The notes under the pieces were generated by a model. It made no database searches. It was not told the DNA's origin and was given only the letters and a program-made list of their open reading frames with translations. A DNA stretch of 10,452 nt from a virus: the UHGV virus genome UHGV-0316020. The stretch is one strand, 5' to 3'. Below are positions 1,232 through 10,371 of the stretch, piece after piece. Every line of letters begins with the position of its first letter. Within the stretch, counting starts at the first letter, position 1. The translations under genes and the position numbers were made by a program.

Positions 1232-3298
1232 TTATTCCTCTGGGTAAGCTGAGCTAATCAAGGTATCTTCCTGCATACGATTAATATGAGATGTGGTTCT
1301 TTCATCAATAACCTTTCCATCAAGTACCGTCTGAGTTGTGATATTGATTGTCTGAGGCTGAATGTTTACTGACGGCTTGATAACCTTTAAATCTTGTGTG
1401 AATGTTTCCACTCGACCTTTCAGATTATTTAATGCTTCAGGTGAAAACTGTGGAACATCCTTTGATTTGCCCTGAACCATAGCCCATAAAACAGCAGCTA
1501 AAGAGTTCATGTCACCAGTCAATGCTTGGTCTGTGGGTTCCACCTTTGACCTTACAACTTTGTCAATTGGATTATCTGACTTACTCATCTGACGTTCATA
1601 GAACGGTTTAACAATGGAGTTAATCACATCAGTTGCCATACCGACAATCATTACTTTGGTAATTGCATCAGCTACAGATAATTTTCCTTTACCACCTTCA
1701 ACACTACCGGAACGTGAATTAATTCTTCCTGCTGCTGTATTTGCTACATTTCCAAGCGTGGAAATAGCCCTAATTAAGCTCCAGATGCCACCTACAGCAC
1801 CAATACCAGACCTTACAGCAACAATACCAGCAAGTCCCTTTAATGCACTTAACAGGCCATTTGCGATACCATCAGCTACAGCTTTTTGAGTGTCATTTAA
1901 TTCTCTGTAAGCAAGGGTCACTCTGTCAAAGAATCCCTGCACTCGGTAGCTAATCGTGGTTAAATCATCAATACCGTTTGACATACTTTTCATCAAGTTG
2001 CCAAAATGTTCACCAAGATTTTTAGATTGCCCACCTAGCGAATTAAGTAAATTAGTCAGTGACCTTGTAAAGTCTGTTAACCCTTCCTGTGAACCATCGA
2101 ACATTAAGGCCAGATTATTATTCCATGAATTACTTAAGCGGCCTAACTGCGTCTGAGTAGAGTTAATAATCTTTTCCCATCCACCCGCTTTATCAATCAT
2201 CAAGCCCATCTGTTTAGCGACTTTAGGGAGAACATCTTTAGAAAGAACCTTACCGTCTTTCATGGCCTTGTCTAATTCTTCCGTAGTCATCCCAAGGCTT
2301 CTGGCAAATAACTGGAAAGCACCTGCCATTCTGTCACCTAGCTGACCGCGTAACTCTTCAGCTTGAATCTTTCCTTTAGAAGCCATCTGCTCGAAAGCTT
2401 TTAGAATCCCGTTAATCTCATCAGTGCTTAAACCCATTAGTCGGGATGTACCAATCACATTAGAAAATAAGGATTCTTTCTGGTCTGCATTCATATCACC
2501 AGCACCAGCGGAAAACTTAGCAAAGCTGCTTAATGTCTCAATCTGGTCTACACCAGTATTATTAGCAAGATTCTTAACAAATTCTGTAGCTCGTTTAGCA
2601 CCTTCATCACCTAAAACGAATTGTGCCGCTCGTTGTGATGCTTCTTTTTTCAGACCAACCTCCATAATCCGCCTGTAAGCTTCTAAGGCTGTCTGAAAAC
2701 TATAAATGGCTGTACCTGCTTTGATTGCACTTGTAGCTAATACATCCAGACCATTCGAAGCATTTTCACTGTGATTATTTTTGCTGGTGGTCTTGTTAAA
2801 CTTAGAAAGTGTTTCACGTAGATTTTGATTTAACTTTGCTAACTCACGATTAAAAGCTTCGTTCCCAAGTGTCTTGGATTTACTGCTTAAGCTGTAATAC
2901 TGGCTTCTAAAATACTTCTCAAGCAGAGGATTAAAGTCACGAAGTTTGCTCATATTCACGCTATGCGCTGCTGTGATTGCTCTGTTGCCGCTAATTCGTG
3001 GTTGCCTTGCTGCTTTAACAGTTTCTTCAACCTGAGTTTTGAACTTAAAGACCTTCGTAGATTTGGCTCTTTCCTCCAGCTTATTAAAAGTCTGGTTAAT
3101 CTTCTTTTCCATATTCCCCAAAGAGGCTGTTAAATCCTTATCCATGCTCTTTGGGTTAACTTTAAATGCTTTATTTAAATTACGCTCAATCTTTGTAGCT
3201 GACTGCAAAGCTGCCTTTTCAACTCTTTGCAGTCCCTTAATAACGTTCTCATTGAAGCCTAGCTCAACGATAAAACTATCAACTGTGAATTTGCTCAT
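1232..3298 (-). CDS. phage tail tape measure protein (TP901-family-type core)
   Basis: 688-aa ORF with helical repeat-rich N-terminus, a conserved tape-measure core (..EELRGQLGDRMAGAFQLFARSLGMTTEELDKAMKDGKVLSKDVLPKVAKQMG..) and a Gly-rich hydrophobic segment (GIANGLLSALKGLAGIVAVRSGIGAVGGIW); RBS GAGGTGA upstream of the ATG. Confidence 0.85.
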   Translation of the reverse strand: MSKFTVDSFIVELGFNENVIKGLQRVEKAALQSATKIERNLNKAFKVNPKSMDKDLTASLGNMEKKINQTFNKLEERAKSTKVFKFKTQVEETVKAARQPRISGNRAITAAHSVNMSKLRDFNPLLEKYFRSQYYSLSSKSKTLGNEAFNRELAKLNQNLRETLSKFNKTTSKNNHSENASNGLDVLATSAIKAGTAIYSFQTALEAYRRIMEVGLKKEASQRAAQFVLGDEGAKRATEFVKNLANNTGVDQIETLSSFAKFSAGAGDMNADQKESLFSNVIGTSRLMGLSTDEINGILKAFEQMASKGKIQAEELRGQLGDRMAGAFQLFARSLGMTTEELDKAMKDGKVLSKDVLPKVAKQMGLMIDKAGGWEKIINSTQTQLGRLSNSWNNNLALMFDGSQEGLTDFTRSLTNLLNSLGGQSKNLGEHFGNLMKSMSNGIDDLTTISYRVQGFFDRVTLAYRELNDTQKAVADGIANGLLSALKGLAGIVAVRSGIGAVGGIWSLIRAISTLGNVANTAAGRINSRSGSVEGGKGKLSVADAITKVMIVGMATDVINSIVKPFYERQMSKSDNPIDKVVRSKVEPTDQALTGDMNSLAAVLWAMVQGKSKDVPQFSPEALNNLKGRVETFTQDLKVIKPSVNIQPQTINITTQTVLDGKVIDERTTSHINRMQEDTLISSAYPEE

Positions 3299-3347
3299 TC
3301 ATGTTTTTCACCTCATAGACTTCGGATAGAAGACTATCCTCATATAC

Positions 3348-3388
3348 AAAAAAGGGAGAGCTACCGATGTCACTCGATAATCTCTCCC
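3348..3388 (-). terminator. intrinsic terminator-like hairpin between the 70-aa ORF and the tape measure gene
   Basis: GGGAGAG (3354-3360) pairs with CTCTCCC (3382-3388), 21-nt loop with an internal CGA/TCG pairing; on the minus strand the stem is followed directly by UUUUUUGU (complement of 3346-3353). Confidence 0.45.
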
Positions 3389-3414
3389 GTTGATTTTTAC
3401 CCAACCAATTCTTT

Positions 3415-3627
3415 TTAATGTCTGACAAGATAATGTAATTCCGTTTCACCTATGATTTGGGCATCAGAAGGGATACGGTCGATACACCACTTTGGAATCT
3501 TGCGTGTTTTTGGTTTGTGTGAGGTGATGTAATGACGGTTATTCTTAATTCGTAGCTTTTGTCTATTTGGTTGTAGCTGGAGTCTTTCGCAAACAGACCG
3601 AATAGTCTCTAAACGTTCTTCAAACAT
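3415..3627 (-). CDS. hypothetical small basic protein (70 aa)
   Basis: ORF with RBS GAGGTGA 6 nt upstream of the ATG; starts 23 bp after the stop of the 234-aa ORF; Lys/Arg-rich; no motif recognised. Confidence 0.6.
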   Translation of the reverse strand: MFEERLETIRSVCERLQLQPNRQKLRIKNNRHYITSHKPKTRKIPKWCIDRIPSDAQIIGETELHYLVRH

Positions 3628-3650
3628 TAATCACCTCACATATTGCATAA

Positions 3651-4355
3651 TCAAACAGCCTTGCTAAATTCTCGTGGAACACTCAGAAAATCATTGAAGC
3701 TGATAATCTGTGCCAACTCTTGACGGTACTCCTTAGCCAGCGCTTGATGGTCACTAATCAGCTTAGCCAGTCTTGATTTCAGCAAATTAATCTCATTTTC
3801 TCTTGCTTTCATCAGTTTCTCTTTGGCAATTTCTTCAAGCTCAGCTTGTGATTTATCAGCAACAATTAGAGACAATCGATGTGGTGCTCTGACAGCTCTT
3901 TCTGTACGAATAACTCTTTGACCTTCTGGTAAATCTGCAATCACTTTACCAATCTCTACAGGGTCATACCCCCAACCGTCACGGTCTAGTCGAGAGAAAT
4001 AAGCATAAGAATTGGTTTGAAGCTCCATTAAAATAGCCATTTCGTCAATTTCGTCTTCAAGCTTGGACTGAATTTTCTCGTAAACACTTCTCATTGCTTC
4101 TTGAGAGTCTTTAATAGCTTGGAAATATCGGCGTTGTAGCTTCAACTTCAAATCAAGTTCACACCGTTCGTTCATAGAAAAATCAATTTCAACTCTTGGA
4201 ATCTCTAGTGGTTCTGGTGGAATATATGGACCTTTATTTACTTCGTGTGATTCCCGCCAAGCTCTATCAAAAGATTCACGCAAACTTAATTCGTGAATAT
4301 CAAGTGCACTTGGTCTGTTCTCAACAATCATTTCGTGTTCATTACGAATAGACAT
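3651..4355 (-). CDS. hypothetical protein (234 aa) with coiled-coil-like C-terminal half
   Basis: ORF with strong RBS AAGAGGTGA 7 nt upstream of the ATG; charged heptad-like C-terminus (..EINLLKSRLAKLISDHQALAKEYRQELAQI..); no family recognised. Confidence 0.7.
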   Translation of the reverse strand: MSIRNEHEMIVENRPSALDIHELSLRESFDRAWRESHEVNKGPYIPPEPLEIPRVEIDFSMNERCELDLKLKLQRRYFQAIKDSQEAMRSVYEKIQSKLEDEIDEMAILMELQTNSYAYFSRLDRDGWGYDPVEIGKVIADLPEGQRVIRTERAVRAPHRLSLIVADKSQAELEEIAKEKLMKARENEINLLKSRLAKLISDHQALAKEYRQELAQIISFNDFLSVPREFSKAV

Positions 4356-4635: not shown

Positions 4636-4864
4636 AAAGCTGTAAAGGATTCAATAACGAATGAACAAAGACTTTTTGAGATGACCTCTCAAGTTATATA
4701 AGAGGTCATGTAGCGAAAAGCATTGCACCTTTCCAACTCAGAATATAGTTATCATCGATGTAGAATGATTAATATTTTAATTCAAGGAGAATTGCTCTCC
4801 CTATATATAAAATTATGTCATGCTCAAGGTTATTTGTCAACAGCTTTTAACAGATTGGTAACAT

Positions 4865-5391: not shown

Positions 5392-5778
5392 TTACACAGA
5401 CGCTTTAATCTTGTAGTATTGACTACGTGATAAACCGTATTTCTCAGAAATATAACTTTGTGATTGTCCTTTGGTGATTGCATCAATGATTAAATCTTTA
5501 TCGTATCTGTTGCCATTGGCTTTGTGCTTGTCACCATTTTTAATAGAGTTGAAACTCTCAATTAATTTAATGGCGTCTTTAAGGTCGTCTTCGTAAGCAT
5601 AATCAAAACCCCTGATAAACTCGAAATCACCATTATCTTTTTGTGCTTCAGTCCAGATATCAAATCTTGAGGCTAATTGCTGGTGGGTAAACTTGGGTTT
5701 ATTGGTTTGTGTTACGTCTTTCCAGACTTTACCGTCAAATCTTACCAAATGGTCACGATGTTTATAAAAGTCATACAT
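5392..5778 (-). CDS. hypothetical protein with C-terminal helix-turn-helix (possible transcriptional regulator)
   Basis: 128-aa ORF; its ATG overlaps the stop of the upstream 93-aa ORF (TAATG at 5776-5780); C-terminus SQSYISEKYGLSRSQYYKIK has the helix-turn-recognition-helix pattern. Confidence 0.65.
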   Translation of the reverse strand: MYDFYKHRDHLVRFDGKVWKDVTQTNKPKFTHQQLASRFDIWTEAQKDNGDFEFIRGFDYAYEDDLKDAIKLIESFNSIKNGDKHKANGNRYDKDLIIDAITKGQSQSYISEKYGLSRSQYYKIKASV

Positions 5779-6060: not shown

Positions 6061-6615
6061 TTAAAATTCCTCTGCTTGTGCGTATACGTCAAATTCAAAG
6101 TCTGGTTCACTGGTTGTAAGGCTGATATTTCCAACTTCCGCATGATGATTAATTGTCTCAATAACTTTCATACAAATAGTGGCTAAGTTAGCGCAATATT
6201 TATCACTTGGTAATTCGTAGCTAAGTCTGGTTGCTTGTCTTTGAAGATGGCTCGTCACTGTGCTTGAACTAATCTCATCAAGACTTCGCAGTAAATAAAA
6301 AACCTTCCGGTGATAATTATCTCTTCCAAGACTGCGACAAGTACCGATAATTACATCTTCAATTTTTGATGGTAGTTGCTCGTAAGAATCAAAGCTCATC
6401 AAGAAAGTTTTTAAAGTATTCTCTTTTTCTTTGCGTACTGGCATAAATCTGTCTCGTGGCGTAATGCTACGAATGACCGCTTCAATGTTTTTACGTTCGG
6501 TTTTGGAAAAGGCTGGTACTTCGTAGCTGGTGGGGGTGTCTGTGTAAGCGTAGGAGTTGTGCTTGTTGCGTTCTCTTGATGCCTGAAGCATCGCTCTAAA
6601 TTCTGAATCCTGCAT
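6061..6615 (-). CDS. hypothetical protein (184 aa), first gene of the minus-strand small-protein operon
   Basis: ORF directly downstream of a TTGACA-17-TAGTAT promoter; GAGGG upstream of the ATG; no motif recognised. Confidence 0.7.
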   Translation of the reverse strand: MQDSEFRAMLQASRERNKHNSYAYTDTPTSYEVPAFSKTERKNIEAVIRSITPRDRFMPVRKEKENTLKTFLMSFDSYEQLPSKIEDVIIGTCRSLGRDNYHRKVFYLLRSLDEISSSTVTSHLQRQATRLSYELPSDKYCANLATICMKVIETINHHAEVGNISLTTSEPDFEFDVYAQAEEF

Positions 6616-6666
6616 TCATATTCTGACCCTCATGAGATGTTATTATTCTGTTAACTTATATATACA

Positions 6667-6695
6667 ATACTAGCATTTTCAAAGACTAATGTCAA
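6667..6695 (-). promoter_or_regulatory. sigma70-like promoter for the 184/93/128/107-aa operon
   Basis: On the minus strand: TTGACA (complement of 6690-6695), 17-nt spacer, TAGTAT (complement of 6667-6672), about 50 nt upstream of the ATG at 6615. Confidence 0.5.
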
Positions 6696-6702
6696 GCATT
6701 TT

Positions 6703-6732
6703 TTAACATTTCATTAACATCTGTGGTATAAT
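6703..6732 (+). promoter_or_regulatory. divergent sigma70-like promoter with extended -10
   Basis: TTAACA (6703-6708), 18-nt spacer, TGgTATAAT (6724-6732); its -35 lies 8 bp from the -35 of the minus-strand promoter, giving a back-to-back arrangement. Confidence 0.45.
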
Positions 6733-6912
6733 GGTTCTATGAGAGAGGGAAAAATAGAAAAGGCGTGGCTATGTATTTGGTCGCATGTTTTGCATTGCAC
6801 ACAGACCTCTTCAATCGCTCTGTAACGAGTTAAATGGCCTCTTCAGGTCAACTATAAGGTCAGGTACTTTTTGTATCAGAATGCGATTGAGAGCGTCTTA
6901 CAAGGAAAACTA

Positions 6913-7089
6913 ATGGTAAATCTCCCTCCTGAGCTGGGGTCACCTGATGTATGGGCTGGTGGAGGCGTTGGGCTGATTGCAGGTCTGCTACTCCGCTACG
7001 TCCTCGTCAGAGTGCTTGTTGTCTTTAAACTGTTCGGTCGTACATGGACGCTTGACCTTAAGGATAATGACCACACAGAACCCCGTTAA
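6913..7089 (+). CDS. small single-pass membrane protein (58 aa)
   Basis: ATG at 6913 preceded by AAGGAAAA at about 6-nt spacing; the track ORF starts further upstream at a TTG with no RBS. Hydrophobic segment WAGGGVGLIAGLLLRYVLVRVLVVF. Looks more GC-rich than its neighbours. Confidence 0.5.
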   Translation: MVNLPPELGSPDVWAGGGVGLIAGLLLRYVLVRVLVVFKLFGRTWTLDLKDNDHTEPR

Positions 7090-8340: not shown

Positions 8341-8745
8341 TGGTAAGATTGTTCACATGACCTTACTTAACAGATTCTTAAGAGCTTTGAAACGAACTGT
8401 TTAACAGGTCACTACATCTGGTCTTATCGTTCCCTGTCTTCTTGGTAGTTCTGTTAAGTATCTTTTCAGGTATCTCTTACAGTCACTGTTAAGATGATAC
8501 TCTCCCTTCGGGTTATATCGTATCTCTCCTCCCGTTAAATACCCCTTCACAGTCAGACTAAATAACACCTGTGTAGTTTCTTGGTAGAATCTTTCAAGGT
8601 AACTTAACTCTGAGTTTATGAAGTTGACCTATGAGATAGATTCTACCGAATCTGTTAGTCAATTGTTGCTTAGGTGCTGCTAAGGCTTACTTAGTGGGAA
8701 GAGAGGGAATATGTGACCATAGGAACCCCTCCTGTTAAAAGTTTC

Positions 8746-8773
8746 TTGACGTTACTATCTCGATATGTATAAT
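8746..8773 (+). promoter_or_regulatory. strong sigma70-like promoter (TTGACG, 16 nt, TATAAT)
   Basis: TTGACG at 8746-8751; TATAAT at 8768-8773 preceded by TG; a CCTGTTAAAA motif (8731-8740) abuts the -35. Confidence 0.6.
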
Positions 8774-8779
8774 GGCTTA

Positions 8780-8950
8780 CTGTACTAGGTTTACTTCCAA
8801 AGCAACCAAGCACACTCTCTATGGCAGTGTCCGGCGAGGTAAGGTCGTGTAGGGTGCGGTTCGGTGGGGTAAGGTTTGGTGCGGTATGGGTGGATTGTCG
8901 TAGCCACGTTAAAAATCGACTTATAGGGACTCTTTCGGGAGTCCTTTTTA
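8780..8950 (+). ncRNA. candidate ~170-nt G-rich small RNA delimited by promoter and intrinsic terminator; class unknown
   Basis: Predicted start about 7 nt after the -10 and end at the terminator U-tract; body contains tandem GGTAAGGT / GGTGCGGT units (8838-8895); no RBS-equipped ORF inside. Confidence 0.4.
8927..8950 (+). terminator. intrinsic terminator: GGACUC(U)-UUCG-(G)GAGUCC hairpin followed by UUUUU
   Basis: 7-bp stem including one G-U pair (8927-8933 / 8938-8944), UUCG tetraloop (8934-8937), T-run at 8945-8949. Confidence 0.6.
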
Positions 8951-9126
8951 GTTTGTATAAAATCTGTACAGTAACTTTTCAGAGTCTGAAAATTTTTATA
9001 AATATCGTAGTAACCCCTCTACATTCCCCTTCACCGATAATCTTAAAAATATCTGACAGATGTCTGTAGCTGCTAAGTACCCGTCACACCAGCTATGTGA
9101 CCCCCTTGGCAAAAAAGCCAAATATC

Positions 9127-9154: not shown

Positions 9155-9703
9155 TTATTTAGCAAGTCTGTAATAAGTTGCTCTAGAGATTCCTAACTCT
9201 TCCTGAATCTGCAACCTCGTCTTACCTTGTGAAATAAGCGCCTGTACAGCCTCTGAAGAAGCTTTTACAGGCCTCCCCATATGTACCCCTTCAGCTTTAG
9301 CACGTTCAATACCAGCCTTTCTACGTTCACTGATAAGGTCTTTTTCAAGGTCAGCTAAACCAGCCATCATAGTAAGCATTGCTTTACCGATTGGTGTAGA
9401 CAGGTCAAAACCTTCACGTAAAGAAACAACCCTCACACCTTTAGTCTGTAGTGCCTCCACGTTAGAGAGCACATCAACGGTATTACGCCCTAAACGGTCA
9501 ATAGCTACCACAACTAACGTATCGTCACACCTTACATAGTTCATCATGTCTCTAAAACCATCTCTGCTGGTGGCCTTTGTAGCTCCTGAGACAGCCTCAT
9601 CAATAAACCATTTATCGACCTTGTGAACCTTCTCTATCTGTAGTTTCTGGTTGTCTACAGTCTGGTCTTGTGTTGATACCCTGCAATAACCAATCACCGC
9701 CAT
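9155..9703 (-). CDS. small serine recombinase (resolvase / Hin-Gin-type invertase family)
   Basis: 182-aa ORF; N-terminal IGYCRVSTQDQ with the catalytic Ser at position 10; VVAIDRLGRNT; E-helix ..ERRKAGIERAKAEGVHMGRP; C-terminal HTH LQIQEELGISRATYYRL; RBS AGGGG upstream of the ATG. Confidence 0.9.
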   Translation of the reverse strand: MAVIGYCRVSTQDQTVDNQKLQIEKVHKVDKWFIDEAVSGATKATSRDGFRDMMNYVRCDDTLVVVAIDRLGRNTVDVLSNVEALQTKGVRVVSLREGFDLSTPIGKAMLTMMAGLADLEKDLISERRKAGIERAKAEGVHMGRPVKASSEAVQALISQGKTRLQIQEELGISRATYYRLAK

Positions 9704-9825: not shown

Positions 9826-9962
9826 GACTTCCTTTTAAGACTGGTTATGAAGGAGCTATGAAGATTTTAGGAAGGTAACTATAACCATCACTTTCTAACT
9901 TTCACGTAGGAAATCGTTAAGTTTCTTGATAGTTACACCACGTAACCAAACATCTATACATC

Positions 9963-10126: not shown

Positions 10127-10371
10127 TAGATACTTGGAAATCTACTATTAAATTGCATAGTCATTCACCTGATATTGTCAAATGATTATGACTTCAATGA
10201 CCCTTGAATGAAGTCTATTCGGTTTTCTAAGAGACCTGTTAAAAACAGGACAATATCAGGTGAATGACTATGCAATTTAATAGTAGATTTCCAAGTATCT
10301 ACCTGTTTTTAACAGGTCTCTTAGAAAACCGAATAGACTTCATTCAAGGGTCATTGAAGTCATAATCATTT
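10127..10371. repeat. interleaved inverted repeat A-B-A'-B': A 10127-10179, B 10180-10249, A' 10249-10301 (reverse complement of A), B' 10302-10371 (reverse complement of B)
   Basis: Verified base by base: 10249-10301 is the exact reverse complement of 10127-10179, and 10302-10371 is the exact reverse complement of 10180-10249. B ends in the near-palindrome CCTGTTAAAAACAGG. Confidence 0.8.

Follow-up and report, generated by a model that had tools for sequence, protein, structure and literature searches.

The island and its G-rich transcription unit

The window, by which is meant the whole stretch of DNA analysed (10,452 nucleotides of the virus genome UHGV-0316020), was found to be 99.9% identical to an island of approximately 11.6 kb located between tonB and yciI in E. 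coli CUPS04. The genes of the island encode a large serine recombinase, baseplate and tape-measure proteins, six hypothetical proteins, a Dam methylase and a small serine recombinase; the baseplate and tape-measure genes are related to those of felixounaviruses (approximately 74% nucleotide identity for the baseplate gene). At the right end of the island (10127-10371) two perfect inverted repeats, both 100% complementary, are interleaved as A B A' B' and adjoin the invertase-like recombinase gene (9155-9703); these may be recombination sites or an invertible switch. The features of the window are listed in Table 1.

Table 1. Positions of the features discussed in the text (numbering of the window).
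Feature	Position	Strand	Remarks
Predicted helper-vrRNA site	1668-1696	-	80-95% NN match
Predicted helper-vrRNA site	2646-2698	-	80-95% NN match
Predicted helper-vrRNA site	3275-3309	-	80-95% NN match
Predicted helper-vrRNA site	5699-5730	-	80-95% NN match
Predicted helper-vrRNA site	6167-6204	+	80-95% NN match
Predicted helper-vrRNA site	6645-6676	-	80-95% NN match
CCTGTTAAAA motif	8731-8740	+	just upstream of the -35 hexamer; block cctcctgtt..aaaag upstream of -35 conserved in 15 islands
Sigma-70-type promoter of the vrRNA	8746-8773	+	11/12 consensus matches, among the three best of the window; predicted start near 8780
5' leader (approximately 43 nt)	8780-8822	+	partly conserved among islands (aACTGTAC..CAC..CTATGGC)
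Guide region, 13 pentamers	8823-8887	+	period-5 array; 11 units GGY, 2 units TGT
Constant 3' tail GGGTGGATTGTCGTAGCCACGTTAAAAATCGAC (33 nt), H-type pseudoknot	8888-8920	+	gap-free alignment to helper tails, covariation
Intrinsic terminator	8925-8950	+	9-pair hairpin with UUCG loop, U run; in MFE and centroid folds
Predicted helper-vrRNA site	9885-9922	+	80-95% NN match
Inverted repeat A (53 nt)	10127-10179		
Inverted repeat B (70 nt)	10180-10249		
Inverted repeat A' (53 nt)	10249-10301		
Inverted repeat B' (70 nt)	10302-10371		

A preliminary description of the locus had proposed a small RNA delimited by a promoter and a terminator. The near-consensus promoter (TTGACG-16-TATAAT) was borne out, but its TG abuts TATAAT directly and does not form the canonical TGnTATAAT of an extended -10 element. 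The terminator was found as described, with a 9-bp stem and UUCG loop at 8925-8946 followed by a T run, and the G-richness of the body was confirmed (GC skew of +0.40 to +0.44 at 8800-8950, with negative values on either side). Matches to consensus alone prove little, because the counts for the whole window do not exceed those in shuffled sequences (20 promoter-like sites versus 25.4, and 7 terminator-like sites versus 6.6). The positions of this promoter and terminator are conserved in 13-15 related islands: in an alignment of such islands the -35 hexamer (TTGAC/TTGAT), the -10 hexamer (TATAAT, TATAAG or TTTAAG) and their spacing were kept across all 15, and the terminator was kept in 13, being absent from L197 and L198. 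A compensatory variant of the terminator, GAGGACTCCTTCACCGGAGTCC, was identified in L127, L190 and L191. The minimum free energy (MFE) of the whole transcript was only weakly better than that of shuffled sequences (z = -1.96), and an MFE fold cannot display a pseudoknot, which was assessed by covariation.

An exact copy of the motif CCTGTTAAAA abuts the promoter, as had been noted earlier. With up to one mismatch the motif was found five times in the window versus 1.3 expected, the other copies being exact at 10235-10244(+) and 10307-10316(-) and carrying one mismatch at 4845-4854(-) and 8399-8408(-). It stands 5-6 nt upstream of the -35 hexamer in the two strongest promoters, at 8746 on the plus strand and at 4840 on the minus strand, the copy at 4845(-) occupying the equivalent position relative to the strong minus-strand promoter 4840-4812; copies of the motif also make an inverted pair within the terminal repeats. 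The motif may be a regulator site or UP-like element, possibly the operator of a satellite regulator, and its membership in the transcription unit is uncertain.

The body of the unit had been read as tandem 8-nt units, GGTAAGGT and GGTGCGGT; this was a misreading, the true register being 5 nt with 13 GGYNN pentamers, GGCAG TGTCC GGCGA GGTAA GGTCG TGTAG GGTGC GGTTC GGTGG GGTAA GGTTT GGTGC GGTAT. The dinucleotides in the NN positions are accordingly AG CC GA AA CG AG GC TC GG AA TT GC (AT). With one mismatch or none allowed, (GGTNN)x5 was found seven times in the array compared to an expectation of 0.00 in 200 shuffles, and Tandem Repeats Finder (TRF) reported a weak period-15 array only.

The statement that no credible open reading frame lies between promoter and terminator was upheld. 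An open reading frame of 82 amino acids (8821-9069) does exist and begins with ATG, but it reads through the terminator and is judged non-coding because insertions and deletions of 5-nt units among relatives, which carry 10, 11, 12 or 13 units, break any frame; with the wholesale changes of the NN dinucleotides, no frame or peptide is conserved there. That it represents a small protein gene can for practical purposes be discounted. The anatomy of the unit, together with its homology to experimentally detected RNAs, supports its reading as a putative non-coding small RNA of the plus strand which runs from promoter to terminator and works with a protein.

Kinship with the vrRNAs of VIPR systems

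VIPR, described in 2026, is a PAM-free RNA-guided DNA-binding system which has been proposed to be older than CRISPR. Its vrRNAs consist of 9-16 YNNGG repeats, in which GGY is conserved and NN hypervariable, and of an invariant 3' tail, which in the SUSP1 clade folds as a pseudoknot; the guide pairs with double-stranded DNA through its NN dinucleotides, with one target base skipped per unit, and transcription is repressed from either strand without need of a PAM (bioRxiv 10.64898/2026.04.26.720920). In the same work the vrRNAs of phage SUSP1 were seen as transcripts of approximately 100 nt which co-purify with the protein Vipr. By cryo-EM, one Vipr protomer was found per repeat, the GGY triplets being read on the RNA by the protomers, with the pseudoknot capping the 3' end and the R-loop growing 3' to 5' (10.64898/2026.04.26.720927).

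Related phages had been suggested as the place to look for the repeat unit, and GGYNN modules were indeed found in felixounaviruses. When phage genomes were searched using BLASTN, only 8820-8920 was matched (75-81% identity), in unannotated intergenic DNA of approximately 92 felixounavirus records. These phages have a promoter and, behind it, tandem modules built in the same way (approximately 9-16 GGYNN units plus tail) which flank a gene of 195 codons; its product matches PDB 36pp, 'SUSP1 Vipr protein' (E = 6e-128), and retains H17, K33, R39, K82, R138, D177, W178 and R179, which are residues tested in 10.64898/2026.04.26.720927.

Among 61 unique guides collected from satellites and helpers, position 2 of the unit was G in 98% and position 3 a pyrimidine in 100%, while entropy reached 1.96 bits at position 4 and 1.90 bits at position 5. 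The GGY triplets would on this comparison be the protein-bound scaffold and the NN dinucleotides the code. The NN of the last unit was AT in 51 of the 61 guides, so that this unit is effectively constant and probably belongs to the scaffold.

Twenty-four distinct 3' tails were aligned without gaps, in which P1 is formed by tail positions 3-6 with 17-20 and P2 by positions 8-15 with 28-35. In the window P1 joins 8890-8893 (GTGG) to 8904-8907 (CCAC) and P2 joins 8897-8900 (GTCG) to 8917-8920 (CGAC). Over the 24 tails, 86% of the cells were paired and changes on both sides were seen in 9 of 12 pairs; this level of pairing was reached by 0 of 500 shuffles, and registers slid out of place gave 25-45%. 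The tail of the window differs from that of SUSP1 vrRNA1 at 4 of 34 positions (30/34 identical), and two of these differences together make an A-T to C-G compensatory pair. P2 is 4 bp long in the window versus 6-7 bp in helper tails, the G-C pair of helper tails at positions 9/34 being absent; loading onto helper Vipr in spite of the short P2 is plausible from the sequence.

With 13 tandem GGYNN pentamers, within the published range of 9-16, and with the invariant pseudoknot-forming tail, albeit with a P2 of reduced length, the feature is almost certainly a VIPR vrRNA. It belongs to a kind of element published in 2026 and is not a new kind; its REP-directed guide, described below, is the unexplained part. 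The predicted primary transcript is 170 nt and mature helper vrRNAs, at approximately 100 nt, are shorter, from which it appears that the leader is probably trimmed off the mature RNA.

There remains a very small chance that the locus is unrelated to VIPR and represents either a small RNA acting alone (regulatory or G-quadruplex) or a DNA site (pac, cos or recombinase). The G2N3 spacing could in principle give two-tier quadruplexes, the locus adjoins a serine recombinase gene, and a search of Rfam 15 returned no matches at gathering thresholds in the whole window and none at E <= 1 over 8650-9050. Rfam 15 would, however, not yet include a family first described in 2026, and the same modules and tail flank vipr in the felixounavirus records; the compensatory changes support an RNA pseudoknot, and hypervariable NN within fixed GGY fits neither a base-pairing small RNA nor a fixed DNA site. 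The preliminary description was right in calling the locus a candidate small RNA, and the options which it offered (a regulatory RNA, a protein-titrating RNA, a packaging or cohesive-end DNA site) were generic. A protein-titrating RNA may have been partly right; a DNA site is unsupported, since what is conserved is a pseudoknot of the RNA, with its compensatory changes, and GGY triplets which are read on RNA. As to titration, the RNA carries the predicted binding scaffold for helper Vipr in an island without vipr, and approximately 13 protomers may be taken up per copy.

Several other candidates were considered. A G-quadruplex or an SD-like sponge was considered from the sequence and nothing was found in support, and a Rho rut site on the minus strand was likewise unsupported, the flanking promoters of helper and satellite both driving the G-rich strand. 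A TRAP-like site for a ring protein had been suggested by the 5-nt period and was dropped, the period being explained by the VIPR papers and the Vipr homology. TRAP sites in the Bacillus trp leader comprise 11 (G/U)AG triplets with spacers of 2-3 nt. The array of the window resembles them in its conserved triplets separated by 2-nt variable spacers, repeated approximately 11-13 times with one oligomer subunit per triplet, but has GGY in place of (G/U)AG and would carry a helical RAMP filament in place of an 11-mer ring, and its spacers carry information where those of TRAP sites are irrelevant. Neither TRAP (G/U)AG triplets nor CsrB-type GGA loop motifs were found, the triplets being GGY and the fold having no GGA-loop hairpins.

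Compared to Class 1 CRISPR crRNAs on their Cas7-type RAMP backbone, the vrRNA is alike in having a variable part and a constant handle with RAMP protomers at a fixed period; it differs in lacking repeat-spacer units and a contiguous spacer, in its period of 5 nt on RNA and 3 nt on DNA, and in having neither a nuclease nor adaptation genes, and in the SUSP1 system the result is repression. Orphan or 'mini' CRISPR arrays of phages and satellites offer a further likeness, the guide alone being carried and the effector borrowed from another genome.

A probable orphan vrRNA in a satellite with predicted helper target sites

The SUSP1 satellite has been reported to share tail genes with felixounaviruses, and some satellites to encode vrRNAs of their own (10.64898/2026.04.26.720920). 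Judged by its sequence, the island of the window is such a 'SUSP1 satellite': it is chromosomal in E. coli, carries SUSP1-related tape-measure and baseplate genes and is targeted by helper vrRNAs. Of 5426 complete E. coli genomes, 153 had homologues of the vrRNA locus, which were never annotated.

No vipr and vap genes were found flanking the vrRNA, which makes it an orphan member and does not by itself exclude membership. Using TBLASTN with Vipr and Vap1, no matches were obtained in the window or in seven islands. A hidden Markov model built from 118 Vipr homologues recovered its positive control at 1e-84, and the best other hit in the window, its full island and six other islands had E = 8. 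It is possible that a very divergent RAMP is present among the hypothetical proteins of the island, as RAMPs escape sequence searches (10.64898/2026.04.26.720920). Given an orphan vrRNA, the simplest reading is that the Vipr of the helper is used, and reliance on helper-encoded Vipr is considered likely.

Against the SUSP1-clade type II vrRNAs, the vrRNA of the window is therefore alike in the number of its GGYNN units, in its pseudoknot tail and hypervariable NN, in giving a near-perfect natural match when decoded with a 1-nt skip, and in residing in a satellite of the type reported to carry vrRNAs. It differs in having no vipr or vap in cis, in its own sigma-70 promoter and intrinsic terminator outside a VIPR operon, in being a single module and not an array, in its shorter P2, and in a predicted target which is a multicopy host repeat and not a rival element.

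When 51 helper guides were compared with the window at a threshold of at least 80% NN match, eight sites were found under a 1-nt skip, compared to 1, 0 and 0 for skips of 0, 2 and 3. Seven of these are listed in Table 1; the eighth, a borderline case at 8879, falls within the G-rich vrRNA. One helper guide of 11 units matched 21 of 22 positions at 9891-9922, and with two more 5' units 23 of 26 at 9885-9922. The predicted sites fall in the tape-measure gene, two hypothetical genes, the divergent promoter region at approximately 6650-6730 and the region upstream of the small recombinase gene.

Satellite vrRNAs have been described as targeting other satellites (10.64898/2026.04.26.720920). In 15 islands, guide types A to E sit at one fixed locus between the same promoter and tail, A being that of the window, and guides B to E gave 17/20 to 21/24 matches in other satellites, in agreement with that report. 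Guide E (E. coli VL7S7, L196) matched 17 of 20 positions at 6889-6917(+) of the window and the same site in four other islands, and in the window a strong plus-strand promoter (6703-6732) lies approximately 150 nt upstream of it; from the sequence this looks like targeting of the window by another satellite. Two near-consensus promoters stand back to back in this region (minus strand, TTGACA-17-TAGTAT, 6695-6667; plus strand, TTAACA-18-TATAAT, 6703-6732). Helper and rival guides cluster around them, and these divergent promoters may be the regulatory switch of the satellite.

The guide A array was present in 53 of the 5426 E. coli genomes. In L127, L190 and L191 guide A is followed by another tail (P2 TGGTAG/CTACC, resembling helper tail T2) and another terminator, with promoter, leader and guide nearly identical to those of the window, which suggests that guide and tail are exchanged by modular recombination. 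A variant, A', was identified in L191 (E. coli 90-3040) at 2087-2139, in which units 7-8 are missing and one scaffold change has occurred; the island is disrupted by an IS3-family element. A' would no longer match REP and looks like decay following loss of function.

The REP/BIME match of the guide and its possible purpose

Decoded with a 1-nt skip, guide A reads AGnCCnGAnAAnCGnAGnGCnTCnGGnAAnTTnGC, the consensus of the Escherichia Y-type REP (BIME) together with its outer flank. The match comprises 25 of 26 positions, or 24 of 24 when the constant last unit is excluded; the single mismatch falls in that last unit and so probably does not count. A known REP sequence, GCCTGATGCGCTACGCTTATCAGGCCTACG (PMC11208160), is the reverse complement of guide A units 1-9. 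Under the 1-nt skip, and under no other, the vrRNA has a predicted natural DNA target which reaches the threshold of 80% NN match: among the islands and phage loci sampled, matches did not exceed 19/26 for skips of 0 and 2 or 17/26 for a skip of 3, the last value setting aside the 26/26 match of the RNA to its own gene.

When units 3-12 were searched against species-representative genomes, the matches listed were from Escherichia, Shigella, Pseudocitrobacter and Enterobacter, and among them were at least 149 sites at 25/26 (consensus AGGCCTGATAAGCGTAGCGCATCAGGCAATTTTGCGTT) and at least two at 26/26, one of which was in Escherichia whittamii. No perfect 26/26 site was found in E. coli with the skip bases tried. 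Megablast placed the consensus 38-mer in every one of the 5426 E. coli genomes, with a median of 19 places per genome (range 6-46); 127,488 places were chromosomal and 83 on plasmids. An example is the BIME between trpS and yhfZ of K-12, where the trpS stop codon and a terminator-like hairpin enclose the site. Effective sites would be fewer than the total REP count, because R-loops grow from the 3' end and the 3' units match only those copies which have the AATTTTGC flank. In Escherichia sp. MOD1-EC7003 (L208, L216, L222, L260, L261 and L262), tandem arrays of 5-9 guide-A-matching REP/BIME units with periods of approximately 115 or 160-170 nt were observed, which would be dense clusters of predicted binding sites.

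A search for the target of guide A in 17 satellite loci, in 16 felixounavirus loci and across the complete SUSP1 genome gave nothing above background, the sole exception being a host REP beside one island. A BLAST search of phages with the REP-filled 38-mer gave only host-DNA contaminants or transduced DNA. Scans of IMG/VR with half-guides returned AGGCCTGATAAGCGTAGCGCATCAGGCA, the reverse complement of the REP GCCTGATGCGCTACGCTTATCAGGCCTACG; these matches were considered as viral targets and rejected, being only REPs at provirus edges or chance. The main text of 10.64898/2026.04.26.720920 does not mention REP targeting by a guide. A likeness limited to the choice of target exists with the IS621/IS110 bridge RNAs (PMC11208160), which are also guides of a mobile element with the E. 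coli REP GCCTGATGCGCTACGCTTATCAGGCCTACG as natural target; the protein, the RNA fold and the outcome (recombination) are unrelated.

The reading preferred here, with a probability of about 0.6, is that of an orphan type II (SUSP1-clade) vrRNA in a satellite without vipr, by which the Vipr of the helper would be hijacked and diverted to REP. We infer that a sigma-70 promoter and a terminator of its own would delimit a primary vrRNA transcript of approximately 170 nt, trimmed to approximately 100 nt; that, upon infection by a felixounavirus helper, the vrRNA would be loaded with helper Vipr (approximately 20 kDa, an ancestral RAMP), which would polymerise on the RNA with one protomer per GGY; and that the filament, capped by the 3' pseudoknot, would bind BIMEs, the exposed NN pairing with double-stranded DNA and every third target base being skipped. 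Filament assembly on GGY, the pseudoknot cap, gapped pairing and repression were shown for SUSP1 in the two 2026 preprints and are extended to the present RNA by homology; the RNA anatomy, the island without vipr, the helper guides targeting the island and the identity of the code with the REP/BIME consensus can be read from the window and its relatives.

By occupying abundant and harmless host sites, the satellite would divert helper Vipr away from the helper guides which target the satellite itself. Such a harmless multicopy sink is put forward as the purpose only tentatively. It is similarly conjectural whether the guide-only module, in turning captured helper Vipr onto REP/BIME (approximately 20 sites per chromosome), would act as an anti-VIPR sink or as RNA-guided manipulation of the host at a repeat family. 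Guide A is an exception to the targeting of satellites by satellites, which counts against the idea of a sink, and the short P2 and the degenerate A' variant are reasons for caution.

It may alternatively be supposed that the RNA is purely a protein sponge, taking up approximately 13 Vipr protomers, in which only the GGY scaffold and the tail matter and the NN match to REP has no function, for example as a relic of the origin of the guide. Such a sponge would suit an island without a vipr gene and the near-consensus stand-alone promoter, whereas helper vrRNAs lie within an operon, and the persistence of degenerate A' in one genome also speaks for it. The 24/24 match to a host repeat consensus, however, cannot be chance, its probability for a single given sequence being on the order of 4^-24; at least 45 genomes share the identical array, which is combined with two tail/terminator versions and found at several integration sites, suggesting that the guide is maintained; and the guides of other satellites have plausible DNA targets. 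A pure sponge is therefore regarded as unlikely.

Equally unlikely is a weapon against the host or another element, in which filaments formed on BIMEs would stop transcription across operon-internal REPs, or would obstruct gyrase, IHF or replication, or in which an unsampled rival bearing REP would be the real target. VIPR represses from either strand and needs no PAM, REP/BIME sites occur in transcribed intergenic regions such as trpS-yhfZ, and some 20 matching sites are available per genome; but no individual gene emerged as affected, nearly all the sites lie on the chromosome and are conserved throughout the E. coli genomes, and no rival among the sampled satellites and phages, or SUSP1, carries the site.

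If the guide-only module does turn captured helper Vipr onto REP/BIME, the vrRNA would be an RNA 'anti-VIPR' sink; alternatively, it would be the first instance in which RNA-guided DNA binding to a family of bacterial repeats serves a mobile element in manipulating its host. The REP/BIME-aimed guide is common and, if functional, would amount to counter-defence by diversion or to a new use of REP, the roles of which are still debated. Guides can be separate from the effector gene, under a promoter and terminator of their own, within the very element which the effector attacks, and the three-way conflict of helper, satellite and rival satellite becomes directly testable; the natural 24/24 match offers a ready-made multicopy chromosomal target for tests of VIPR binding in vivo. 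Such vrRNAs are invisible to genome annotation and to Rfam models.

A search of IMG/VR for (GGTNN)x5 gave, among the matches listed, both vrRNA-like arrays and plain microsatellites, and the class is widespread; these matches were kept out of the statistics. Long tandem degenerate GGYNN arrays with contig-specific spacers were observed in many unrelated viral contigs, namely in L090 (2200-3410), L059 (3320-5330) and L062 (minus strand, 3376-3860) and in L082, L103, L122, L105, L097, L088 and L040. The last array in these contigs often stops just before a ribosome-binding site and ATG, and the arrays presumably represent vrRNAs belonging to other types of VIPR. Simple microsatellites such as (GGTCT)n and (GGTTA)n likewise fit the GGTNN pattern and are of a different nature.
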